From a virus (lineage: Duplodnaviria > Caudoviricetes), in the IMG/VR virus record IMGVR_UViG_3300033121_002140, positions 1 to 64,000 of that record: a DNA stretch of 64,000 nucleotides; one strand, written 5' to 3'. A program made the position numbers and the translations under genes. Positions within the stretch are counted from its first letter, which is position 1, and every line of letters starts with the position of its first letter. Under the pieces are notes generated by a model. It did not search any database, was not told where the DNA came from, and saw only the letters and a program-made list of their open reading frames with translations. Of the stretch, positions 11,764 to 64,000 are shown piece after piece.

Positions 11764-12573
11764 ATGGGTGGTGACAGGGAAGCGCTCCGGGAGGCCGTGC
11801 GAGCCATCGTCATCGTGGAACTCGCAGGCGGCTGCGCGTACGAGACGCAGGTGATCCGTGCGATCCGCAAGGCAGGCGCTGCGGGCAGGATCAGGCGCGG
11901 GGCCTGCGCCGACTCCACCCTGCCCGACGCCGACATCCGGGTGAACGGCCGGATCTTTCCGGTCGAGGTGAAGGCGGACTCGCACGCCCAGATGGGTGGG
12001 GGCTCCGTCAGGTACTCGGTCGCGAGACGTCGGTTCTCGTGCGGCAGCTCATGCAGCGACATGAGCGCGGCCGCGGTGGAGATGCTGGAGGCGTCAGAGG
12101 ACTCCGCCGCCCTCAAGGACGCGTTGGACGGGCTCGTCGCGTTTCTGGCACCGCGGACCAGGGGCCGCGAGCTCACGGAGTTCCCGCTGAACGGGATCAG
12201 GCCCCGCGACTGGCAGGCCGCGGTGCGCAGGGGGCTGGTCGCGGCCGTCAACCGCTACATGGACGCGGACCCGACCGCGGTCGAGGCCCACTACGCTGCG
12301 AAGGGCACGCACTACATCCAGATCGGCGGCGCAGGCCTGTTCAGGCTGGGAGGGGCCGACCCGGCAGGGCTCGGAGTGCCAAGGCTCGCGGGCCGGGCCC
12401 GGCTCGAGTTCAGGGCGGTCTCAGCGGGCGGGCTAGGCAAGGCCACGACCAGCGTCAGCCTCAGGGTGCAGGCACGGTTGGCAGGCGTCGGTCGGTCGTC
12501 CAGCACGCTGGACGACCCGGAGTCCGTGAAGGCCCTGCTGGACCGTGCGCAGGGAGAGGAAAGGACCTTCTGA
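11764..12573 (+). CDS. PD-(D/E)XK nuclease-like protein
   Basis: PDADI...VEVK motif; late motif ATACGTA upstream; [12 protein letters not shown] leader. Confidence 0.65.
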
Positions 12574-13028
12574 TGAACGAGACGATCGTGAGGGTGACGC
12601 GCCTTCCGCACGCTGAGGGGCTACCGCTGCCCGCGTACCAGACCGAAGGAGCGGCAGCGATGGATCTCTCGGCAGCCCTCGCCGAGGACGCGCCCGTCGT
12701 GCTGTCCCCAGGCGCGCGGGCGCTGGTGCCCACTGGGCTCGTGCTCGCCATCCCGCGTGAGCACGAGGTGCAGGTGAGGTCCAGGTCGGGCCTGGCCCTG
12801 AGGCATGGGGTGACGGTGCTCAACTCACCCGGCACCATCGACAGCGACTACAGGGGGGAGCTGGGCGTGCTCCTCGTCAACCTGGGCACCGAGCCCTTCA
12901 CGGTCAGACGCGGTGACAGGATCGCACAGGCGCTCCTGGCGCCTGTCGCCCGGTGCGCGTGGCGCGAGGAGACGGCGCTCGATCAGACAGCACGGGGCTC
13001 GGGCGGCTACGGAAGCACGGGGCGCTGA
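12573..13028 (+). CDS. dut: dUTP diphosphatase (trimeric)
   Basis: motifs [36 protein letters not shown]. Confidence 0.97.
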
Positions 13029-47896: not shown

Positions 47897-48627
47897 TTCA
47901 GTGCCTCCGCGATCTTTTCGGCCTTCGCCATGCGTTCCTCGACCACCTGCCAGTTGATCTCGCGCATCTGCGCGACCACATACGACTGACGGTCGGTCAT
48001 GTAGTCCCGGAAGTACGCGTGCGACCACACGTCGATCACGAGGACTGGGTACAGGCCCAGCATCACGTGCCCGTCATGTCCATCGATCACGGTGTTGACG
48101 TACCGCCTCAGGAAGGTGCTGTAGCCCATGACGACCCAGCCCTCCTGAGCGGCCATCGCGCATGCGATGAAGTCCTGCTGCCAGTCGTCGAACGTGCCCC
48201 AGTCCCTCTCCAGGCGCATGTAGGACTTGGTGTCGGAGTAGATCTGCGAGTGCGGGTCGAAGCAGTTGGCGAAGTAGAGATCATGCAGCCACACTGCGTT
48301 CGCGGAACGCGCCTCCGTGACCTTTAGGTCCCTGAAGGGCGACTTGTCCGGGCCCGAGCCCCCACGGTCCGCGGTGTCGAGCTCGGCGGACGCCTTGTTC
48401 AGGGCCTGCACGTAGCCCTCGTACAGCGCCTTGTGCGCGGCCTTGGTCTTGTCCGAGACCCGTTCCGACACCTGCGGGAACGTCTTCGCCTGCGCGACGT
48501 AGGACTCGTCCAGGCCTTGCGCCCGGGGAGCGACGCCCGCCTGCTGGAGCGACAGCTGCACGATCCTGTCGATGTTGAGGCCTGCCAGGGTCTGATCAGT
48601 CTTCGCCTCGCTCATCTTCATCAGCAT
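47893..48627 (-). CDS. Fe/Mn superoxide dismutase-like protein (atypical)
   Basis: H..LYEGY, LHDLYF, W..F, GWVV, IDVWSHAY (canonical DxWEHAY). Confidence 0.85.
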   Translation of the reverse strand: MLMKMSEAKTDQTLAGLNIDRIVQLSLQQAGVAPRAQGLDESYVAQAKTFPQVSERVSDKTKAAHKALYEGYVQALNKASAELDTADRGGSGPDKSPFRDLKVTEARSANAVWLHDLYFANCFDPHSQIYSDTKSYMRLERDWGTFDDWQQDFIACAMAAQEGWVVMGYSTFLRRYVNTVIDGHDGHVMLGLYPVLVIDVWSHAYFRDYMTDRQSYVVAQMREINWQVVEERMAKAEKIAEALK

Positions 48628-49256
48628 GACTCCTCTTTCTGAAGGTATCGCCAGGCGAAGCCTCCTGAGCTCCTGATGACACCACGCGCTGCGGCAGCCA
48701 CGGTAGTCTTTTCGAAGCCATCAGCCTGCACCGCAGTCACAGATGGATAAACTTGCAGCACAGCTCCCGTGGCAGGATCGCATCGTGCGACACGTTTGTG
48801 ATGAGCACGTCTACTTGCCTCGATGATCTTTTGGCGTTTTTCGGGAGCCAGCACAGCCATCGCACGTCGCACGTTTGTGCACGCTTCAACTGTGAACTTT
48901 CGGCCCCGGCGCGATTGCGACATCCGCTGCCGTGCTTCCAAGGAGAATTTTCGGCCAGTCATCACGCCGTCGCCACCGATCGTGCTATTGTAGCCCAGCT
49001 CGCCCATCGACCGCAGCCGTGCGATCCACTCACGTTCTGCGTGCTTGACCTGCTCAGGCGTGCCGCAGATCTCGAGCACCTCGTGCTTCCAGCATCCAGG
49101 ACCGTGCAGCGCGATGGCTCTGTGAAAATGACACTTGGAACCCTGCCTTGCAAGCTTGGCGTGACGCATCCAACGCCGCAGCATTGTGAACGACGTCATA
49201 CCGACGTACGACTTGCCATTGAGCACGTTCACGTGCCTGTACACGATGCAGGGCAT
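48621..49256 (-). CDS. GIY-YIG homing endonuclease with NUMOD3/NUMOD1-like tail
   Basis: IVYRHVN...YVGMT, RW..H, FHRAI, GYNSTIGGDG, YPSVTAV. Confidence 0.9.
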   Translation of the reverse strand: MPCIVYRHVNVLNGKSYVGMTSFTMLRRWMRHAKLARQGSKCHFHRAIALHGPGCWKHEVLEICGTPEQVKHAEREWIARLRSMGELGYNSTIGGDGVMTGRKFSLEARQRMSQSRRGRKFTVEACTNVRRAMAVLAPEKRQKIIEASRRAHHKRVARCDPATGAVLQVYPSVTAVQADGFEKTTVAAAARGVIRSSGGFAWRYLQKEESC

Positions 49257-49534
49257 CACGACAGCTCGTATTCTTGCTCGAGCTCTCCGTTGTGAACGAG
49301 GAACTTTTTGCCCTCGGGGGTACGCAGGATCGTGTCCTTGGTCCCCACCGAATCGACCGTGTAGAGCAGACCCGTCTTCTTGTGTCGCAGCTTCAGGCCT
49401 GCCGACAGCACGTTGCGCTGGCCGCCGTCCTTGGTGCCAAACACGACGTCGACGTCCTTGGCGAGCTCCGCCAGACGCCTGGCATGCTCCTCCTTGAACG
49501 CCTGGACGACGTCCGCCTCCGTCAGGGTCCTCAT
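49256..49534 (-). CDS. hypothetical phage protein (SH3-like C-terminus)
   Basis: GLKLRHKKTGLLYTVDSV; GGAGG RBS. Confidence 0.75.
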   Translation of the reverse strand: MRTLTEADVVQAFKEEHARRLAELAKDVDVVFGTKDGGQRNVLSAGLKLRHKKTGLLYTVDSVGTKDTILRTPEGKKFLVHNGELEQEYELS

Positions 49535-50013
49535 CGCCGCCTCCTGCCCTGCCCACGCAGGGCGTCGATGTCAGCGTAGGTGTCCTCGCGTGACTGTCCG
49601 GCGGCATGACCCGCGGCCCATGTCTCCGCTTCCCGCTCAGCCGCGTTCTCCGCGCTCCAGGGCTCGTCCGCGTCCGTCTCCCGGCGCCAGGGTCCAGGCG
49701 CGCCCGATCCTTTGTTCGGGTTCCAGTGCCTGTCATAGTAGGCCTTCGCGGACGCCTTGAGGTCATCCAGCCCAGCAGGCCTGACCTGCCGCACCTCGGC
49801 CGCAGGAGCGTCGGCATCGACGGGTTCGGCGACGCCGTTCTTGACGCCGCGGGCGTACGCCCGAGCCAGCTTCTCCGCGCTGTCTCCGCCGAAGACCCGG
49901 GGTTTGCCCGGCGTGCCGTCCTTTTCCGTGAACGTGACCTGCCAGGACGTCTCAGAGAGACGCATCAGCTCTCTTCGCACGAAAGACCGCAGCTCATTGA
50001 CCGACGATCGCAT
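49531..50013 (-). CDS. late-class protein with LRSFVRRELMRLSE leader
   Basis: ATAGTTA 6 nt upstream of ATG 50013. Confidence 0.7.
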   Translation of the reverse strand: MRSSVNELRSFVRRELMRLSETSWQVTFTEKDGTPGKPRVFGGDSAEKLARAYARGVKNGVAEPVDADAPAAEVRQVRPAGLDDLKASAKAYYDRHWNPNKGSGAPGPWRRETDADEPWSAENAAEREAETWAAGHAAGQSREDTYADIDALRGQGRRRR

Positions 50014-52368: not shown

Positions 52369-52661
52369 TTGGTGGGCACCTGGTCCGTGAGCTTCAGACG
52401 GTCACCCGGCCACCAGGCCGGGGGCACGACAGCGCCCACCTCGACCTGCAGGCCGTCGATCGCCGTGTGCCGCACGACCAGGTGCCAGCCCAACAGCACC
52501 TTGATCCGGGCCCAAAAGGGCAGCACGTACGTGAATGTCATCATCCTGTGCACGCTCGGGCCATCGTCGTCCGTCTCTGCCGGCAGTCTCACCTGCACGT
52601 GGTGCGACCCGCTCTCCGTGTACCATGCCCTGTGACCAGAGATCTCATGAAACCTGTGCAT
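52365..52661 (-). CDS. hypothetical protein
   Basis: operon context with overlaps. Confidence 0.6.
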   Translation of the reverse strand: MHRFHEISGHRAWYTESGSHHVQVRLPAETDDDGPSVHRMMTFTYVLPFWARIKVLLGWHLVVRHTAIDGLQVEVGAVVPPAWWPGDRLKLTDQVPTK

Positions 52662-53094
52662 GTGTGCCTCCGTCCGGGTTTTCCGGCGTTTTTCCTGACC
52701 TTGCGGCGTCCCGCAGCGCCATCAACATGCGTCCGAGCCAGTTGTGGCCCACTCCTCGACACACGCCGAAATGACGGTCCCCCCACCAGTTCGTCTCGAC
52801 CAGCTCGGCGTCCTGCGTCAGCAGCAGCGCCTCGAGCAGGCCTGGATCGGAGAACTTCCGGAGGAGGCAGGCCCACATGACGGCGTTTTTCGTGGAGTCC
52901 CAGTCAGGACGCAGCACTGCGTGCCGTCCACGGGCTCGTGCCTCCCTGGCCGTGGGTGCCGACATGATCCAGGCGCGCTGGTCCGGGTCAAGGGTCTTCT
53001 CGGCCTGGTAGTGGTGCTCGACGCAGTAACCGTCGTCGGCCACGTGGAAGTTGGAAAGGAACCGGAACGCGCCCCTGAAGCCGTCGATCCTCAT
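52645..53094 (-). CDS. NADAR (YbiA-like) ADP-ribosyl hydrolase family protein
   Basis: FLSNF, VEHHYQAEK, RPDWD, LLRKF, LVE...DRHFG...G.NWLGRMLMALR. Confidence 0.92.
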   Translation of the reverse strand: MRIDGFRGAFRFLSNFHVADDGYCVEHHYQAEKTLDPDQRAWIMSAPTAREARARGRHAVLRPDWDSTKNAVMWACLLRKFSDPGLLEALLLTQDAELVETNWWGDRHFGVCRGVGHNWLGRMLMALRDAARSGKTPENPDGGTHAQVS

Positions 53095-53657
53095 GGGCTC
53101 CTCCGTTTTCGTGTCGAGAGCACGTCAAACGGCCCACGCACCACGACGTTGTAGTGCTCGGCCGCGGCCAGGGCCAACAACAACCTCCTCCGTGGGGGCA
53201 CGTCGAGCCCGGAGAGGGCGTGAAGGGCACCCAGGGCGAGCGGCTCGCCCAGACCGATCGCGATGAAACCCTCAGGCGCACGTGTGACCTGCATGTTAGG
53301 CTCCATCCTGTGGAGGACGCCGTGCCAACCGATCAGCAGCCCAGTGCCGCGCTCTGCCATGCAGGTCCTGTCGTCCCGCAGGGCCTTCCTGACGGATCGC
53401 GCGAACGTTGTCGCCAGGTGCGCGGTCAGGCCCTGGTCGGTGCCTCGGTACGCGGGCAGCTCGACCTCATGGCGCAGCAGTTGTCCGATCCGAAAAGACC
53501 CGCAGAAGCCCAGCAGGAAGCCTGAGCGCATGAAGACCTTGGGCTCACCCCACACGAACGAGGTCGCGCCCAGGCCTGTGCGGCTCCTGTGCACCGCGGC
53601 CCTGTCGCCTGCCATGTAGACCCTGCCCTCGTGCTCAAGACCGACCACGCATGTCAT
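53091..53657 (-). CDS. proteasome-beta / HslV-like Thr peptidase
   Basis: M-TCVVG N-terminal Thr, MAGD, PKVF, GFCGS, AIGxG. Confidence 0.8.
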   Translation of the reverse strand: MTCVVGLEHEGRVYMAGDRAAVHRSRTGLGATSFVWGEPKVFMRSGFLLGFCGSFRIGQLLRHEVELPAYRGTDQGLTAHLATTFARSVRKALRDDRTCMAERGTGLLIGWHGVLHRMEPNMQVTRAPEGFIAIGLGEPLALGALHALSGLDVPPRRRLLLALAAAEHYNVVVRGPFDVLSTRKRRSP

Positions 53658-53938
53658 GCCGTGACCTCCTCTTCGTCTCCAATCCTGATCACCCTGAAGG
53701 CCCAGCCCGCCGGGATCGCGAGGACGAGTGCGGCGGGATCGCGGGCCCTGAGCTCGTCCATGACGTCCCTGAGTCCCGTCTCCATGATCTCACGTGTGGT
53801 CTGCTGCGGCTCGTATTGAAACAGCAGGACGGTGCCCACGCCGTCCGGTATCTCGAAGCGCTCGATGTTGCCACGGCGGGCGGGCAGCTCTTCCCAGGTC
53901 TCGAAGACCCGCAGGATCTTATCGTGTGAACTTTGCAT
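53654..53938 (-). CDS. hypothetical protein
   Basis: operon context; natural composition. Confidence 0.65.
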   Translation of the reverse strand: MQSSHDKILRVFETWEELPARRGNIERFEIPDGVGTVLLFQYEPQQTTREIMETGLRDVMDELRARDPAALVLAIPAGWAFRVIRIGDEEEVTA

Positions 53939-54938
53939 ATCCGTTCCACGATGTGGATGCACGAAGCGCTCGAGACAGCGTCAGCAATCCGAGTCTACCC
54001 GCGCGGTGCGCCGCGAGAACCCTGATCCAATCCATCCAATAGCCATGGAGCAGCTCCAGAGCGCCAGACGCCTCGCGGACAGTCGAAACGACGTCACGAG
54101 CGGACCTCGCGGCACGCAGCTGACACTCCAGTGCTGCCATCGTCACTGTGGGCGGATGCGTCATGATCGCAGGCATCGATTTGTCCTGCTCAATGTCGAT
54201 CGGCGATGCCAGCGTTCGCTGGACCAACCGAAAATCACGCTCGTATACGTGAAGCGAGTTCGACACGTGTGTGTATGAACCCAATCCCACGGCCAGCTCG
54301 AGCGCCATGAGCTCCTGAAAGAGCGTGAAGGCAAAGACGTCGTAGGGCAACCCGATCACGAGATCGCTCGATCTCATCGAGACGATCAAGTGCAGCCTAC
54401 CTTCACGTAGAAAGAACTGCAGGGCAAGCGTGCACGGCACGTCTCTTTTGGCCAACCATGAATCGGTAGCTGACCGGATCTGGATCACAGCCCGGCGTGA
54501 ATCTGGGTCACGTCGCAGCTCTTCCTTGATGTACTCCCACTGGGACTGCATGGGCCCTGCCTTGAGCTCCCACGCTGTTTCCACTTCGTGACCGTGGACC
54601 CGCGGATGCCAACGCCTGAAGATCCTTGCACCGTAGGCCGAGTTCGCGGTCTTTCCATCGTCGCTGATTCCGCGCCAAAAGGGCGCATACCAGCCGATCC
54701 AGTCGGTCTCATCGTTTCCCGTCAGGTACCAGAGCGACTCTGCGACTGCATACGACACGGAACGGTCCGCTGCAGGCACGAATGCGAGCCTGGCTCTCGG
54801 ATCTGCCAACGTGAACTTCACTGCCAGCTGTTCTTTCACCCGTTGACCACGGGGTGCGCATTCATACGTGGGGTTCTCAAACACGCTCTTGAGCAGGTCC
54901 CAGTAGCAAGACGTGAAGCCGCTGTATGCACGTTCCAT
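53919..54938 (-). CDS. thymidylate-synthase-family enzyme, predicted dCMP hydroxymethylase-type
   Basis: PRG, AESLW, YGARI, DSRRAV, catalytic PCT, MRSSDLVIGLPYD (Asp at the ThyA Asn177 position), SNSLHVYE. Confidence 0.9.
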   Translation of the reverse strand: MERAYSGFTSCYWDLLKSVFENPTYECAPRGQRVKEQLAVKFTLADPRARLAFVPAADRSVSYAVAESLWYLTGNDETDWIGWYAPFWRGISDDGKTANSAYGARIFRRWHPRVHGHEVETAWELKAGPMQSQWEYIKEELRRDPDSRRAVIQIRSATDSWLAKRDVPCTLALQFFLREGRLHLIVSMRSSDLVIGLPYDVFAFTLFQELMALELAVGLGSYTHVSNSLHVYERDFRLVQRTLASPIDIEQDKSMPAIMTHPPTVTMAALECQLRAARSARDVVSTVREASGALELLHGYWMDWIRVLAAHRAGRLGLLTLSRALRASTSWNGYAKFTR

Positions 54939-54963: not shown

Positions 54964-55683
54964 ATGGCGTACATCTACTGCATCACGAACAGGATCGATG
55001 GAAAGCGCTACGTCGGACAGACGGCCACGACATTATCCAGGCGTTGGAACGGCCACAAACAGTCTGCCAAGCGTCATACCAACGATTCACATCTTGCTCG
55101 CGCAATCCGTCTGCACGGTCATGACGCATTCATGATCGAACCGCTGCAAGAATGCCAAATCGATGAGCTCGACGAGCTCGAAAGATGGTGGATCGCGCAG
55201 TTGCGCACGCAAGATCCCAACGTCGGCTACAACCTGTCGCCAGGTGGCCTGGGGGGCAATAGAGGGCTGCGCCGCTCGGACGATGCAAGGGCTAAAATGC
55301 GTGCACGACACTGGGCACGCGACGCTAAGCGTCGAGACCAGGCGACCAGGCGGAACAGCGAATCGCACGTGGGGATCGAGATGGATCACGAGACTCGTGC
55401 CAAGATCTCGAGGAGTCTCGCAGGCCATGTTCGCAGCGAAACAACGAGGACACGCATCGGCGAGACAAAAAAGGGCTCAAGCAACCCGATGTGGGGCAAG
55501 CCCTCCAAAAGACGTCCTGTCGTCCAGTGCACACCTGGTTGGCAGCTTATTGCAGTCCACGGATCGATCGAAGCTGCTGCGAAGGCCGCAAACGTCTCGG
55601 CACCGACCATCCGGTCCGCTTGCGCCCGGGCCGTCATTACGGCGGGATCGCGCTGGTGTTTTCTTGAGGACGACCCTGTCTAA
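54964..55683 (+). CDS. GIY-YIG homing endonuclease with NUMOD3/NUMOD1-like tail
   Basis: YIYCITN...YVGQT, RW.GH, GYNLSPGG, NPMWGK, SIEAAAK. Confidence 0.92.
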   Translation: MAYIYCITNRIDGKRYVGQTATTLSRRWNGHKQSAKRHTNDSHLARAIRLHGHDAFMIEPLQECQIDELDELERWWIAQLRTQDPNVGYNLSPGGLGGNRGLRRSDDARAKMRARHWARDAKRRDQATRRNSESHVGIEMDHETRAKISRSLAGHVRSETTRTRIGETKKGSSNPMWGKPSKRRPVVQCTPGWQLIAVHGSIEAAAKAANVSAPTIRSACARAVITAGSRWCFLEDDPV

Positions 55684-56645
55684 GCAACAATCGGGCGTGG
55701 GCCGCCCCAGTCGCCGCGGGCCTCGAACCACTCGCACGTCGCCTGCAGGCCTTGCCAGAGGCCCACCCTCGGCTCGTACCCAAGCACTGTCCGCGCCAGC
55801 GAGATGTCAGCGTGCGTCGTATGCACGTCTCCTACCCTGGACGGCGCCTGCACCATAGAAAGCTCGCCGTAACGTGCCCGCAGCGCCTGCAGGATCTGGT
55901 CGTTGGTGTGGGTCTCGCCGCAGGCCACGTTGAAGGCCCGGCCGTCCAGGGCATACGGATGCGCGGCGGCGAGCATGTTGGCATCGACGACGTTGTCGAC
56001 ATGGCACATGTCGCGGGATTGCGTGCCGTCTCCATCGCTACGCAGCGGCCGTCGACGCATCACGGCCGTGAGCCACGCCGCGATCGCGGTCGCGTAGGGA
56101 GAGTCCCCCAGGGAACCTGGGCCGAAGACGTTGAAGTACCGCAGGCACACCGACTCGAACCCATAGAGCCGCGCGTACAGGCCCAGGTAGTCCTCCACAG
56201 TGGACTTATGCATCGCGTAGGGTGATGCAGGCCTCCTGGGAGCGTCCTCACGGGTGGGTGTGACGGCACCGGGCCCATACACGGCTGACGAGGACGAGAA
56301 CACGAACCGCAGCCTGCGGCGCGCCAGGCGACATGCCTCGACCAGACGCATGGTGCGGTTGACGTTGACCTCGAACGTGCGCTCTGGATGCTCGACAGTG
56401 TAGGAGACCCTGGGCAGTGCCGCCATGTGGAACACGACGTCGTATCGACCGCTGCGAACCCGGGCCAGCACCTCGTCCGAGGCCATGTCCTCCTCTAGAA
56501 ACGACCAGCACTGTTGGGCCGGCGTCTTGTCGCAGGACGCCGTCAGGTCGTCCACCGCATCCACGGCCCAGCCCTCGCTGAGGAGCCGACGCGTCAGGTG
56601 GGACCCGATGAACCCGCAGGCGCCTGTCACGAGCGATGTCGGCAT
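55680..56645 (-). CDS. NAD-dependent UDP-sugar 4-epimerase-like (extended SDR)
   Basis: VTGACGFIG, SSSAVYG, YAMHK (YxxxK), RYFNVFGP, GDGTQSRD. Confidence 0.93.
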   Translation of the reverse strand: MPTSLVTGACGFIGSHLTRRLLSEGWAVDAVDDLTASCDKTPAQQCWSFLEEDMASDEVLARVRSGRYDVVFHMAALPRVSYTVEHPERTFEVNVNRTMRLVEACRLARRRLRFVFSSSSAVYGPGAVTPTREDAPRRPASPYAMHKSTVEDYLGLYARLYGFESVCLRYFNVFGPGSLGDSPYATAIAAWLTAVMRRRPLRSDGDGTQSRDMCHVDNVVDANMLAAAHPYALDGRAFNVACGETHTNDQILQALRARYGELSMVQAPSRVGDVHTTHADISLARTVLGYEPRVGLWQGLQATCEWFEARGDWGGPRPIVA

Positions 56646-57333: not shown

Positions 57334-57891
57334 TCACAAGACCAGCGCGGCCCGCAGCTCCGTGATCTGACGCCCGAGGTCCTCGTCGTCCACCGTGAGC
57401 CGCGTCACCCTGCAGCCGGTCGTCTCGACGAACTCCCGGTAGAGACCGTCGATCTGCATCAGCCGCGCTGGCCCGAGCTCGTCCGGGAACCTGTCGTCCC
57501 TGATCCCGGCGTACGAGGTGCGGGTGCACAGGACCAGGTCGGCACCCAGGGCCGCGTACCTGGCGTCCGCGTGCCACACGGCCGCGTCGTCCCGAGCACG
57601 GCCCATCGCCCTCGAATACACCCACTCGCACGGATAGCCGCGGTCCTTGACCATGCTGGCGCCAGATGCCCGGAGAAACGATGCCAGGTACTCGTCGCCG
57701 TAACGGACCGTGCGTGCGAAGCGCGTCGGGTCGTCCTTGAAAGCGTCCCACTCGCGGTCGTATTTCCAGTATGGGATCCCGACCGCCGCCGACAACCCGC
57801 GCGCGATCTCGGTCTTGCCACATCGATCTGGTCCAACCATCACGATGATGCGCTGTTCACGGTTTTCTGAAGTACTCGAACGTCCGTTCAT
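57334..57891 (-). CDS. dNMP/thymidylate kinase-like P-loop kinase
   Basis: GPDRCGKT, DRGYPCEWVYS; start uncertain. Confidence 0.85.
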   Translation of the reverse strand: MNGRSSTSENREQRIIVMVGPDRCGKTEIARGLSAAVGIPYWKYDREWDAFKDDPTRFARTVRYGDEYLASFLRASGASMVKDRGYPCEWVYSRAMGRARDDAAVWHADARYAALGADLVLCTRTSYAGIRDDRFPDELGPARLMQIDGLYREFVETTGCRVTRLTVDDEDLGRQITELRAALVL

Positions 57892-58669
57892 CCCACTTCA
57901 CTCCTTCAACAGCAAGAAGCTCTTGGAACGAGAGCTTCGGAAAGTCGTCCTCGGTGACTACCCTGAACTCCAGTCCCCGCTCTGCGCAGTACGCCCGGGC
58001 GGCTTCGAACTTCGCCATGTTCTTAGGCGTCTTCGCCAATCTGCTCGGCTTCACCTCGAACAGCAACCCTTGCGATGGCACACCGAAGTCAGGTCGGTAG
58101 GTACCGCCCGACCAGCGAATCAGGTGTGCCTCGTAGTCTAGGTCGTGCTGCACGTCCAAACCCATCGAGCGTTCTGCATGCAAGAGGAATGAGAGCTCGA
58201 ACAAGCTACGGAAGAAGACACCCTTGTACCAGCCTTTGACGGACCGACCGCTGCGGGCATACACTTTCCCCCACGCAGGATTGTTCTCGCCTGAGACAGC
58301 CGCCGACGTCCGCCGAGAGATGTCAGCGGCACGTTCCTCGCCATAGATCTCCGCGTTCGTCTTGCCAGTGCGGTGCTGCGTCACGCGCTGTAGACCATGC
58401 ACATGGTCATGTCGACCGTGCATTGGATTCTTCTCACCGGACGTTGCCTTCGACATCGTCAGCTTGAATCGTCGCGTTCTCTCAGCACCTTCGACGGCAC
58501 CGAGCTTGGCTTCAAAGCGCTCCTGCACTGATCGACCACGCTGCCACGCATTTAGGCATGACACGCAGCAAAACCGCGGCAGCTGCTTTCGAGACGGCCA
58601 CACGGTCTTGACCGCGGTCTTTCCGCACTGCGGGTTCTGACACACGAACTCGTACGCGACGGGCGACAT
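57857..58669 (-). CDS. TnsA-like PD-(D/E)XK homing endonuclease with Zn finger and NUMOD3 repeats
   Basis: CQNPQC...FCCVSC; GEKNPMHG and GENNPAWG; FRSLFE...YRPDF...FEVKP...KFEAA. Confidence 0.85.
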   Translation of the reverse strand: MSPVAYEFVCQNPQCGKTAVKTVWPSRKQLPRFCCVSCLNAWQRGRSVQERFEAKLGAVEGAERTRRFKLTMSKATSGEKNPMHGRHDHVHGLQRVTQHRTGKTNAEIYGEERAADISRRTSAAVSGENNPAWGKVYARSGRSVKGWYKGVFFRSLFELSFLLHAERSMGLDVQHDLDYEAHLIRWSGGTYRPDFGVPSQGLLFEVKPSRLAKTPKNMAKFEAARAYCAERGLEFRVVTEDDFPKLSFQELLAVEGVKWDERTFEYFRKP

Positions 58670-60466: not shown

Positions 60467-60807
60467 GACGCCGTCTCCAGGTAGGGCAAGATGTCAGTCG
60501 AATCGACGTCCCACACCATGAGGGTCTTAAAGGCACCCTCCACGTCGCCTTGGGCGTGCTGAAGGGCCTGTGGACCCTTTGGATGAGTCTCGACAGATGC
60601 CTGCATGAAGGCCGACAGCTCGGCCTCGCGCTCTGGGTCGATGGGCACCCACAGCCCAGGCGTCCTGCCGAGCGTGTGGCTCTCGAAGGCGGTTTGCTCC
60701 ATCAGGGCGTCGTCCTGCATCTGCCTCAACAGCGCGGCCTGCACCCCTGGGTCCATGGGCCGGGTCGCCCGGGGCTGCGGCACGAAAGAAGGCGTGTGGA
60801 CCCTCAC
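60463..60807 (-). CDS. hypothetical protein
   Basis: GTGA overlap with glycosyltransferase stop. Confidence 0.6.
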   Translation of the reverse strand: MRVHTPSFVPQPRATRPMDPGVQAALLRQMQDDALMEQTAFESHTLGRTPGLWVPIDPEREAELSAFMQASVETHPKGPQALQHAQGDVEGAFKTLMVWDVDSTDILPYLETAS

Positions 60808-62018
60808 GGCTCCAGCTCTTTCCGGGCCGCGGCCTCGATCATGTCGACCCGGTGCCCAGGCGAGAAGTCGGCCAACGCCCGCAGGGCACGTTCCTGCGCG
60901 GAGACCAGATGGTCGCGGTCCGCGGCCGACATGTCGGCCAGGTTTTTGACCTTCCGCACCACATCCTCGGGACCGTTCACCAGGAGCCCGCAGCCGTCGC
61001 CCACCTCACGCATGGGCAGGCTCTCGGCGGGCACCAGGGCGGGCACGCCCGCGGCGACCGCCTCCAGGTACCGCATCGTGATGTTGCCGTGTCTCGCGTA
61101 CTCGGGCTTCGTGATGTGACACACGGCCACGCTGTCGTTCAGGGTCCCGTACACGTCCCGAAACGGAAGGCGCGGCACGAAGGCTACGCCAGGATACGCC
61201 TGCAGCACCCCACGCGGGTGCTGCCGCTCGGGCGAGGGCGTGAGCCAGTTGCCGTGCACGGTCGTCTGAAGGCCCAGCCTTTCCCGGAGCTCCCGGGCAG
61301 GGCCGGCATAGTAGCGCACGAACTGGTCGTCACGCTCGTAGTTGTTGCCCACGTAGCGGTAGTGCACGGAGCCCTGGCGGGCCTTGTGGACCCTCGTAAA
61401 GTCGCTGCAGAAAGGCATGCGGACCCTGGGCCGCGTCAGCTCCCTAGGCCTGAGGCAGGGATCGCACACGGTCACCTTGGGCCACCGACGCTCGTCCTCC
61501 TCCGACACCTTCAGGTCCGTGTCGAGGACCACGATGGGCGTGCCCATGCGGGAATAGTGGTCCAGGAGCTCGACCTGGCGGTCCCAGTCGATCGTGGGCT
61601 TGCCCACGATCCGCCACCGCCATTCGACGAAGAGCACGTCGAGCTCGGGCAAGCCAGAACCCGCGCTGGAATCATCGACCTCGATCGGATAGCTGAGGAC
61701 GCACGGATCACCCGGCACGGGCGATGAGTCGATCCTGTAGTTTGGCACGGACCTGCCCTGTTCGAAGCAGGCCGCGATCATCGTGGTGCCTGCCTCACGG
61801 ATCGCGGCGGGCGTGCCTGCAAACCTGTTCAAGAATGCGTACCGCGTCTTCTCCCGCCTCTGCTGCAGCTGGATGACGCTGTGCCCCCTGCGCAGGAGCT
61901 CGTCCACCATCAGATGGCGCTCGCCGCGTAGGCCATCGGGCGTCTCGACCACGTGGCTGTCGCAGGGGCGCTCGAGAAAACCCCAGAACGAAACGCCACA
62001 ACGCAAAGACCGACTCAT
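60804..62018 (-). CDS. GT-B glycosyltransferase resembling T4 DNA beta-glucosyltransferase
   Basis: RYVGNNYER, RLPFRDV, ITKPEYARHGNITMRYLEAVAAG, LVNGPEDVVRKV match the BGT C-terminal pattern recalled from memory; AAGGAG RBS. Confidence 0.8.
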   Translation of the reverse strand: MSRSLRCGVSFWGFLERPCDSHVVETPDGLRGERHLMVDELLRRGHSVIQLQQRREKTRYAFLNRFAGTPAAIREAGTTMIAACFEQGRSVPNYRIDSSPVPGDPCVLSYPIEVDDSSAGSGLPELDVLFVEWRWRIVGKPTIDWDRQVELLDHYSRMGTPIVVLDTDLKVSEEDERRWPKVTVCDPCLRPRELTRPRVRMPFCSDFTRVHKARQGSVHYRYVGNNYERDDQFVRYYAGPARELRERLGLQTTVHGNWLTPSPERQHPRGVLQAYPGVAFVPRLPFRDVYGTLNDSVAVCHITKPEYARHGNITMRYLEAVAAGVPALVPAESLPMREVGDGCGLLVNGPEDVVRKVKNLADMSAADRDHLVSAQERALRALADFSPGHRVDMIEAAARKELEP

Positions 62019-62857: not shown

Positions 62858-63064
62858 TCAGTTCACTTCGCTCTCCAGCTTTCGGAGCCTGACCTGGAGG
62901 CGGCGCATGTCGATCGACAGCTCTAGGATCTCCTGGAGGTGGTCCTCCTGCCACACTTCCCTGGCCCGATGCCGTGCCATGATGGCGGCGTCGAGATCGT
63001 CCATCCCCTCCAGCACCTTCGTGATCGAGGGACGCAGGTGCTGCTCCTCGGGCGTGTAGCTCAC
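62858..63064 (-). CDS. hypothetical protein
   Basis: GTGA overlap; GGAG RBS. Confidence 0.6.
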   Translation of the reverse strand: MSYTPEEQHLRPSITKVLEGMDDLDAAIMARHRAREVWQEDHLQEILELSIDMRRLQVRLRKLESEVN

Positions 63065-64000
63065 AGGCTCAGCTCCTTTCCGAAATGCTCGATCGTCGAC
63101 CGCAGCCCATCCTCGAGCGTGATCTTCGGCTCCCAGCCCAGCATCGCCTGTGCCCTGTGGATCGAGGGTCGTCTCCTGCATGGGTCATCCACGGGCAGCG
63201 GCCTGCGCTCCACGTGGAGCGGCCAATCGCCCGTTGCCCGTGACCTCCCGACCATGGTCAGAATTGTCGACGCAAGGTCGTTGATGGTCACCTCATGCGG
63301 GTTTCCGAAGTTCATGGGTCGCCCGGCCCAGGGACCAGGCGCGGTGGTGCCCAGGGCGACCAGGCCACGCACCATGTCGTCCACATGGCACAGGCTGCGG
63401 GTCTGCAGGCCCGTGCCGTACACGGTCAGGCGCTCGCCTCGCAGTGCCTGCACGACGAAGTTGGAGACGACCCGGCCGTCATCAGGCCGCATCCTGGGCC
63501 CGTATGTGTTGAAGATCCGGGCCACCCGCACGTCCACGCCGTGACAACGCCGGTAGTCGTGACACAAGGCCTCGGCCGCGCGCTTGCCCTCGTCATAGCA
63601 TGCCCGGGGCCCGTACGGCTCCACGTTGCCTCTGTAGCTCTCCAGCTGCGGGTGCTCGAGAGGATCGCCGTAGACCTCGGAGGTGCTGGCCTGCACCATG
63701 ACGGCCCCGTTGAGCCGAGCCAGGTCGAGCGCGTTCTGCGAGCCCACCACACACGTCAGCAGGGTGCCCACCGGATCACGTTGGTACGCGGGCGGGCTCG
63801 CAGGACAGGCCAGGTTCCACACGTGCGTCAGGCCACCGCCCTTGACAGAGAGGAAGTGGGCCCCGTTCCAGCCCAGGTCCTTGGGCACGCGCACGTCACC
63901 TGCCATGAAGAAGAACCTGCCCGCGTGCGGACCCGGCTCCAGGTTCTTGGTCCGACCGGTCGACAGGTCGTCGATCACGAGCACGGAGTCACCCCGCGCC
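63061..64000 (-). CDS. UDP-glucuronate decarboxylase (UDP-xylose synthase)-like, 5' end off window
   Basis: IDDLSTG, LACPASP..YQ.DP, ASTSEVYGDP, YDEGKR, IFNTYGPRM..DDGRVVSNF, QTRS. Confidence 0.93.
   Translation of the reverse strand, partial: ARGDSVLVIDDLSTGRTKNLEPGPHAGRFFFMAGDVRVPKDLGWNGAHFLSVKGGGLTHVWNLACPASPPAYQRDPVGTLLTCVVGSQNALDLARLNGAVMVQASTSEVYGDPLEHPQLESYRGNVEPYGPRACYDEGKRAAEALCHDYRRCHGVDVRVARIFNTYGPRMRPDDGRVVSNFVVQALRGERLTVYGTGLQTRSLCHVDDMVRGLVALGTTAPGPWAGRPMNFGNPHEVTINDLASTILTMVGRSRATGDWPLHVERRPLPVDDPCRRRPSIHRAQAMLGWEPKITLEDGLRSTIEHFGKELSL

Follow-up and report, generated by a model that had tools for sequence, protein, structure and literature searches.

Background

Homologs of thymidylate synthase (TS) that modify cytosine nucleotides are known in several forms, namely the 2'-deoxycytidylate (dCMP) hydroxymethylase gp42 of phage T4 (PDB 1B5E family), the cytidylate (CMP) 5-hydroxymethylase MilA of the mildiomycin pathway in Streptomyces rimofaciens (PDB 5jnh, 5b6d), the flavin-dependent 5-hydroxy-dCMP synthases of the RB69 gp48, DLP3 gp80 and HY126 AfhB type, and the 5-methyl-dCMP synthases of the Xp12 and PaMx74 type. 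In the present study, we analyzed a TS-like gene in the first 64 kb (hereafter, the window) of the 81,961-bp IMG/VR virus record IMGVR_UViG_3300033121_002140. Pfam and PHROGs label the gene 'thymidylate synthase', as do the databases from which the record comes. We found that its product is probably a dCMP hydroxymethylase (a folate-dependent 5-hydroxymethyl-2'-deoxycytidylate synthase), which most likely starts a pathway that, as in T4, modifies the cytosine of the DNA and decorates it with sugar.

The residue at position 177 (E. coli ThyA numbering) is the documented switch between uracil and cytosine [PMC13326640, PMC6400193], and a metagenomic association study reported that positions 177 and 147 best separate the TS homologs on cytosine-modified viral contigs [PMC8670742]. 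Hydroxymethylation has its own signature, an Asp three residues before the catalytic Cys and a Ser two residues before a Tyr [PMC6400193, PMC13326640]. In T4 gp42, the water molecule that adds to the exocyclic methylene is positioned by the corresponding pair Asp145/Ser94, and the D145N mutation abolishes the formation of 5-hydroxymethyl-dCMP [PMC6400193]. The flavin-dependent 5-hydroxy-dCMP synthases have Asn at the position of D169 [PMC13326640]. MilA is set apart from both ThyA and T4 dCMP hydroxymethylase by an extra five-helix domain, and its double mutation A176S/K133R reverses the preference to dCMP [PMC5175136]. The residue rule for positions 177, 147 and 143 is thus already published and has been applied to metaviromes; the gene alone is a confirmation and not a discovery. 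Of greater interest is the identity of the sugar that is finally attached to the base, a question that belongs to the neighbouring genes.

Methods

The GC content of the record is 67% and its completeness was estimated by CheckV at about 24%; the record is thus a fragment of a much larger, uncultured jumbo phage. The translation of the open reading frame (ORF) of the TS-like gene holds RSSDLVIGLPYD, and the protein includes MRSSDLVIGLPYD and DVPCTLALQF. The ATG at 54938 (MERAY...) was taken as the start because the N-termini of 41 homologs begin there; a longer frame, up to 54974, did not fit these N-termini.

Active-site residues were read from alignments with annotated-record sequences of E. 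coli ThyA (K-12), T4 gp42, RB69 gp48, SPO1 gp29, PaMx74 ThyA and others, at columns described as diagnostic in the literature. Conservation was scored in 119 metagenomic database homologs (44-64% identical to the query). In 81 related viral loci, neighbouring genes were counted up to a distance of 10 kb from the TS-like gene, and five near-complete relatives (270-324 kb, 74-100% complete) were examined as well. In the closest relatives, the loci L008 and L102, the TS-like proteins are 59% and 64% identical to the query, respectively.

Results and discussion

Active-site signature

In the alignment with E. coli ThyA (RSCDVFLGLPFN), Asp200 of the query falls in the column of Asn177 and Thr170 in that of His147. 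The same combination of Asp and Thr is found in T4 gp42 and MilA, and Asn occupies position 177 in E. coli ThyA and in the SPO1 2'-deoxyuridylate (dUMP) hydroxymethylase. An earlier note, made from the letters of this DNA, had pointed to the Asp codon, to a Thr after the catalytic Cys in place of the His of ThyA, and to an Asp at this position in the T4 enzyme; the translation and the alignments bear out all three, and its description of Asn177 as the established determinant between dUMP and dCMP agrees with the papers cited above. At position 165, where uracil-type enzymes carry Gln or Asn, the query has Met188.

Both parts of the hydroxymethylation signature are present. Asp166, three residues before Cys169, stands at the position of E. 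coli Leu143 and T4 Asp145, and Ser100, two residues before Tyr102, at that of T4 Ser94. The match with T4 gp42 extends to Ser94, Tyr96, Asp145, Cys148, Thr149, Asp179 and Arg123'/Ser. With E. coli ThyA, the query shares the fold, the catalytic Cys, the phosphate-binding arginines and the His/Tyr sugar contacts, but it differs from ThyA in Asn177, His147, Leu143, Gln165, Trp83 and the closing C-terminal tail; the first three of these positions are Asp, Thr and Asp in the query. All 17 signature residues that we tabulated, including Asp200, are identical in 119 of the 119 homologs, which argues that the signature is under selection and that the Asp is not a chance substitution.

Fold and C-terminal domain

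The TS domain of Pfam (PF00303) matched the protein with an expectation value (E) of 1.5e-21, and Cys169, Arg148/149 and Arg189 are invariant. The ThyA equivalogs of NCBIfam gave 25-68 bits against cut-offs of 108-427, and none passed (the best, 67.8 bits, against 327). Among all PDB sequences, MilA was the top match (E 1e-47, residues 5-315 onto 6-299), ahead of the others by about 32 orders of magnitude in this single-sequence search. When a family profile of 42 sequences was compared with the PDB, MilA gave E 8e-66 and the best ThyA 4e-27.

An AlphaFold2 model built from the family alignment was confident, with a predicted local distance difference test score (pLDDT) of 89.9 and a predicted template modelling score (pTM) of 0.91. 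MilA was also its top Foldseek match, over the full length (TM-score 0.78/0.84, E 2.5e-26, 35% identity), followed by ThyAs and the dCMP hydroxylase AfhB of phage HY126 (about 1e-14 to 1e-15). The C-terminal third of the model is all-helical, with helices in residues 264-336. Both the full-length alignment and these helices indicate that the query has the extra C-terminal five-helix domain of MilA and BcmA. The ThyA tail that closes over the folate is absent, as expected of a dCMP hydroxymethylase, and the MilA-like helical domain stands in its place. MilA, with its Asp186, Cys-Thr and Asp-x-x-Cys, is thus the closest described protein by sequence and by fold. It differs from the query in having Lys133'/Ala176 where the query has Arg and Ser, and in belonging to a bacterial antibiotic gene cluster, not to a phage replication and nucleotide block.

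Proposed reaction

From the conserved residues, we infer a mechanism along the following lines. Cys169 would attack C6 of dCMP, Asp200 would bind and protonate N3/N4 of the cytosine, and the methylene group of methylenetetrahydrofolate would be moved to C5. The exocyclic methylene intermediate would then be hydrated by water activated by Asp166, itself held by Ser100, with no reduction by hydride transfer, and the products would be 5-hydroxymethyl-dCMP and tetrahydrofolate (THF). Arg148' and Ser190 may favour the 2'-deoxy substrate. The fold is that of the long form represented by MilA, in which a helical domain at the C-terminus takes the place of the ThyA tail. The 5-hydroxymethyl-dCMP would be phosphorylated, perhaps by the candidate kinase encoded nearby (Table 1), and then built into DNA, where the neighbouring GT-B enzyme may glycosylate its hydroxymethyl group with a uridine diphosphate (UDP)-sugar tailored by the adjacent 4-epimerase and, in the phage studied here, also by a UDP-xylose synthase.

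Nucleotide metabolism of the phage lineage

All five near-complete relatives carry one TS-like copy together with ThyX, and dihydrofolate reductase (DHFR) was found in none of the five. The presence of ThyX and the absence of DHFR fit a split of tasks, with thymidylate (dTMP) made by ThyX and another reaction carried out by the TS-like enzyme, which regenerates THF. Near the TS-like gene in the window and in L008 there is a thymidine kinase gene, which argues that thymine is retained in the phage DNA. All five near-complete relatives also have a gene of the dCMP deaminase family at a distance of 1-6 kb from the TS-like gene; in metaviromes, linkage of a deaminase with TS is reported to be about 10 times more frequent on cytosine-modified than on unmodified contigs [bioRxiv 10.1101/2024.12.05.627091].

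Other substrates and products

The identification as a dCMP hydroxymethylase is based on homology, fold, residue signature and gene neighbourhood, from which we infer the substrate, the product and the downstream steps, and several points weigh against it. The contig covers only about 24% of the genome. On this fragment no dCTPase such as T4 gp56 was found and MazG gave no match (it was found in one of the five relatives); the only match of the dUTPase/MazG families on the fragment is an ORF of the dUTPase family that is extended at its N-terminus by about 195 residues (Table 1). As no dCTPase was found, the replacement of cytosine could be partial. T4 gp42, at 246 residues and lacking the C-terminal helical domain, is only 28% identical over 132 residues. 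The dUMP enzyme SPO1 gp29 groups with other long-form phage enzymes that bear the Asp, in a clade adjoining the family of the query; this placement indicates that substrate switches happened within the long-form architecture, so that the call rests on residues and context. Finally, Asp177-type TS homologs from metaviromes in several cases make 5-methyl-dCMP [bioRxiv 10.1101/2024.12.05.627091].

This last observation makes a dCMP methyltransferase of the Xp12 and PaMx74 type, in which hydride transfer ends the reaction and gives 5-methylcytosine DNA and dihydrofolate, the most serious rival. Asp at position 177 alone predicts only the use of cytosine, ThyA N177D mutants methylate dCMP, and five of the seven deaminase-linked Asp177 homologs tested from metaviromes made 5-methyl-dCMP [bioRxiv 10.1101/2024.12.05.627091]; a deaminase is also encoded near the TS-like gene in the relatives. 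We nevertheless regard this product as improbable. The features by which a 5-methyl-dCMP synthase was recognized (a non-acidic residue at 143, a ThyA-like tail and usually DHFR; a yardstick drawn in part from one reference, PaMx74) are lacking in the query or, in the case of DHFR, in all five near-complete relatives. PaMx74 ThyA, which does have Asp177, carries Asn, Ala and Pro (the Asn at 143, the Pro after the Cys) where the query has Asp166, Ser100 and Thr170, retains the ThyA-like tail, and is encoded two genes from the DHFR that the relatives lack. Moreover, a hydroxyl group is required as acceptor by the glycosyltransferase conserved in the neighbourhood, and the closest solved relative, MilA, is itself a hydroxymethylase. 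Another rival is a flavin-dependent 5-hydroxy-dCMP synthase of the RB69 gp48 and HY126 AfhB type, with 5-hydroxycytosine then glycosylated through an ether link. Those enzymes share with the query the TS fold, Asp at 177, an acidic residue at 143 and nearby phage genes for sugar nucleotides and a glycosyltransferase, and AfhB is among the fold matches. There is very little probability of this reading, since the diagnostic D169N is absent: RB69 gp48 has Asn in the column of 169, and the query retains Asp192, which is invariant in the family. In addition, the query keeps Trp88 and Gly196 (the positions of Trp80 and Gly173), where RB69 gp48 has Ala and Val, the fold match to AfhB (E 1e-14) is far weaker than that to MilA (E 2.5e-26), and the phages of this type use an arabinose-5-phosphate route, whereas a UDP-xylose synthase and a 4-epimerase are encoded near the query.

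MilA being by far the closest characterized protein, and its C-terminal domain being shared, the enzyme might act on the ribonucleotide CMP, as MilA and BcmA do, and serve not DNA but a pathway related to RNA or one that ends in free 5-hydroxymethylcytosine, as the base or in a nucleoside. A nucleoside 2-deoxyribosyltransferase-like gene of the MilB superfamily, about 7.5 kb from the homolog in L008, would suit such a pathway. Both ribose determinants of MilA (Lys133'/Ala176) are however replaced in the query and in 119 of the 119 homologs by Arg148 and Ser190, the residues of all deoxy-specific enzymes; the gene lies in a phage block for nucleotide metabolism and replication, with thymidine kinase, DNA polymerase III (Pol III) alpha and a kinase-like gene; and the family is essentially viral, with one distant prokaryote locus in a scan of one genome per species. 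A CMP enzyme is therefore highly unlikely. Use of dUMP, by a phage thymidylate synthase or by a dUMP hydroxymethylase of the SPO1 gp29 type, would agree with the database label; SPO1 gp29 is likewise a long form with Asp at the position of Leu143, and the dCMP deaminase of the relatives could supply dUMP. This reading we consider hardly credible: the uracil-type residues Asn177, His/Asn147 and Gln/Asn165 have given way to Asp200, Thr170 and Met188, the ThyA equivalog scores are far below their cut-offs, the relatives have ThyX for dTMP, and the nearby thymidine kinase argues that thymine stays in the DNA. The proposal of the earlier note, that the protein is not a dTMP synthase but a C5-modifying enzyme of cytosine nucleotides, is supported by every available test, and Asp166, Ser100 and Asp192, together with the differences from the 5-methylcytosine type of PaMx74, narrow its three options (hydroxymethylation, methylation or hydroxylation) to hydroxymethylation.

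Distribution and phylogeny

Among 8,000 candidates scored in a large protein collection, 1,361 matched with E < 1e-5, and a scan of IMG/VR gave 143 confirmed loci of the TS-like family, many of them on contigs 200-324 kb long. Prokaryotes, scanned with one genome per species, gave a single distant locus (31% identical, in a metagenome-assembled genome of Firmicutes) and did not recover MilA, from which we take the family to be essentially viral. When 19 kb of the DNA were compared by megablast with cultured and deposited phages, nothing matched. At the protein level, the TS-like protein had no match in the phage collection that reached 40% identity, and the best match of Pol III alpha was about 26% identical; identities this low indicate that the collection holds no cultured relative.

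The earlier note had also proposed a phylogeny with gp42, MilA and ThyA. Our quick maximum likelihood tree included gp42 and ThyA and left out MilA. Its deep branches were very long and without resolution, with T4 gp42, RB69 gp48 and ThyA at about 10 substitutions per site, and thus clade membership was not used for assigning the substrate.

The 'thymidylate synthase' label conceals what is likely a DNA modification that replaces cytosine in uncultured giant phages of a widespread lineage, whose enzyme is encoded on at least 143 viral contigs and almost never in cellular genomes. If the assignment is correct, the phage DNA is predicted to resist many restriction enzymes, and in libraries of some types such modified DNA may be read wrongly or recovered too rarely. 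The enzyme would also be a natural 'deoxy' counterpart of MilA for studying the preference between ribose and deoxyribose in the TS fold.

Low GC content and homing endonucleases

The GC content of the TS-like gene is 58.5% (68% at third codon positions, GC3), and most flanking genes have 64-67% (GC3 79-85%). The lowest 1-kb window of the 82-kb contig is 54251-55250 (GC 0.570, z = -3.0). The lower GC content that the earlier note had described is thus real, but its explanation, acquisition as a module, did not hold. The dip, from about 53.9 to 55.68 kb, comprises only the TS-like gene and a divergent gene for a homing endonuclease (GC 58.9%, GC3 66%), and the next genes on each side have a GC3 of 76-82%. 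In L008 and L102, which have about 60% GC overall, the epimerase gene directly adjoins the TS-like gene with no endonuclease gene between them. The absence of the endonuclease from these two closer relatives, at a site that is otherwise syntenic, points to an endonuclease-linked replacement of the allele: the local allele may have been replaced, together with the endonuclease, from a relative of lower GC content by homing-associated gene conversion. Since the position of the TS-like gene is syntenic, the modification pathway was not newly gained as a block. Compared with L102, the TS-like protein is less conserved (64% identity) than the kinase-like protein (69%), the NADAR protein (72%) and the epimerase (76%).

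Two more patches of low GC content, at 48.6-49.8 kb and 57.9-58.7 kb, coincide with endonuclease genes. The latter holds a TnsA-like/NUMOD3 endonuclease gene (57857-58669, reverse strand), the product of which is 82% identical to that at the same site in L102, above every neighbour; this identity suggests a recently mobile element. The former holds a gene for a GIY-YIG domain protein of 398 amino acids (48621-49817, reverse strand).

Neighbouring genes and a candidate sugar pathway

The features discussed here are listed in Table 1.

Table 1. Coordinates of the TS-like gene, its diagnostic residues and other features of the window
Feature	Position	Strand	Remarks
TS-fold enzyme gene	53919..54938	-	339 amino acids; predicted 5-hydroxymethyl-dCMP synthase (dCMP hydroxymethylase), MilA-like long form
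Asp200 codon (GAC)	54339..54341	-	E. coli Asn177, T4 dCMP hydroxymethylase Asp179, MilA Asp186; determinant of cytosine versus uracil
Asp166-Val-Pro-Cys169-Thr170	54429..54443	-	Predicted water-activating Asp, catalytic Cys, Thr replacing His147 of ThyA
Arg189-Ser190-Ser191-Asp192	54363..54374	-	Ser190 of deoxyribose type (MilA Ala176); Asp192 at position of D169
Arg148-Arg149	54492..54497	-	E. coli Arg126/Arg127; Arg148 replaces MilA Lys133', second determinant of ribose versus deoxyribose
C-terminal all-helical extension	53922..54206	-	About residues 245-339; common to MilA, absent in ThyA and T4 gp42
Small conserved gene downstream	53654..53962	-	Likely start ATG 53938; overlaps 3' end of TS-like gene
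GIY-YIG + NUMOD3 homing endonuclease	54964..55683	+	Pfam GIY-YIG E 2e-9; free-standing, divergent from TS-like gene
UDP-sugar 4-epimerase (GalE/WbgU/WbpP type)	55680..56645	-	Pfam Epimerase E 4e-54; PDB UDP-glucose 4-epimerases E 1e-45
P-loop kinase-like protein	57334..57891	-	Candidate (hydroxymethyl-)dNMP kinase; Pfam AAA_28 just below cut-off
GT-B glycosyltransferase	60804..62018	-	Candidate DNA (5-hydroxymethylcytosine) glycosyltransferase; Pfam Glyco_trans_1_2 E 8e-10
UDP-glucuronate decarboxylase (UDP-xylose synthase)	63061..64000, on to contig 64101	-	PDB human UXS1 E 7e-87
Trimeric dUTPase-family gene	12039-13028	+	Domain at about 12.6-13.0 kb, C-terminus of an ORF of 329 amino acids

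A homolog of the epimerase gene was found in 65 of the 81 loci, mostly about 1 kb from the TS-like gene. Pol III alpha (72 loci), the kinase-like protein (57), the glycosyltransferase (46) and thymidine kinase (44) also recur in this set. The pathway logic resembles that of T4 gp42 in that a kinase-like gene and a glycosyltransferase gene lie near the query. Feature and structure searches in Atlas, which provide leads only, placed the kinase-like protein in viral clusters, a minority of whose members have Thymidylate_kin or dNK, and the feature matches of the glycosyltransferase included clusters of T4 beta-glucosyltransferase. Sequence searches of the PDB with these two proteins gave matches at the level of the P-loop or none, and their roles as a kinase and a DNA glycosyltransferase are only leads.

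True orthologs of the UDP-glucuronate decarboxylase, whose gene lies beside that of the glycosyltransferase, are limited to L008 and L102, the near relatives, and to a small number of further loci. This enzyme and the 4-epimerase could together provide the phage with UDP-xylose or UDP-L-arabinose. L008 and L102 share with the query contig the gene order UDP-xylose synthase, glycosyltransferase, DUF4326, kinase-like protein, epimerase, TS-like protein, small genes and NADAR. We tentatively propose, as a possibility that we would not yet favour, that this clade of MilA architecture provides the entry enzyme for an undescribed base in the uncultured jumbo-phage lineage, 5-hydroxymethylcytosine carrying a pentose (xylose or L-arabinose) made with the phage's own UDP-glucuronate decarboxylase and 4-epimerase, and that MilA and BcmA descended from the clade by changes of Arg to Lys and Ser to Ala. 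The glycosyltransferase and sugar-nucleotide genes are in any case a possible source of new DNA-glycosylating enzymes.

Homologs of the small gene that overlaps the 3' end of the TS-like gene lie immediately downstream of it in L008 and downstream in L102. Directly downstream of the TS-like gene, the close relatives have also kept two further genes, which lie on the reverse strand here, one for the NADAR domain protein (52645-53094) and one for a protein of 188 amino acids with a weak match to an HslV-like PHROG (53091-53657). Beyond the window, contig positions 64080-65456 (L001:2080-3456, reverse strand) encode a fusion of a GNAT acetyltransferase and a Thg1-like protein (tRNA-His guanylyltransferase), followed by an R2K-clade ATP-grasp gene and then by Pol III alpha. 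Near the contig end, a polynucleotide kinase-phosphatase (AAA_33 + PNKP HAD; L001:15368-16384, reverse strand) and an RlaP-type nucleotidyltransferase (L001:17748-18815, reverse strand) form an RNA-repair-like pair.

The nucleoside 2-deoxyribosyltransferase-like domain encoded near the TS-like gene of L008 is part of a protein of 395 amino acids (L008:462-1649, forward strand), and Mycobacterium phage Send513 also has a gene of this kind near its TS homolog. This homolog, gp76 (L099:3884-4888, forward strand), is annotated as thymidylate synthase and has Asn at both 169 and 177, without the conserved Glu58, a combination that matches no described specificity, although the alignment may be unreliable.

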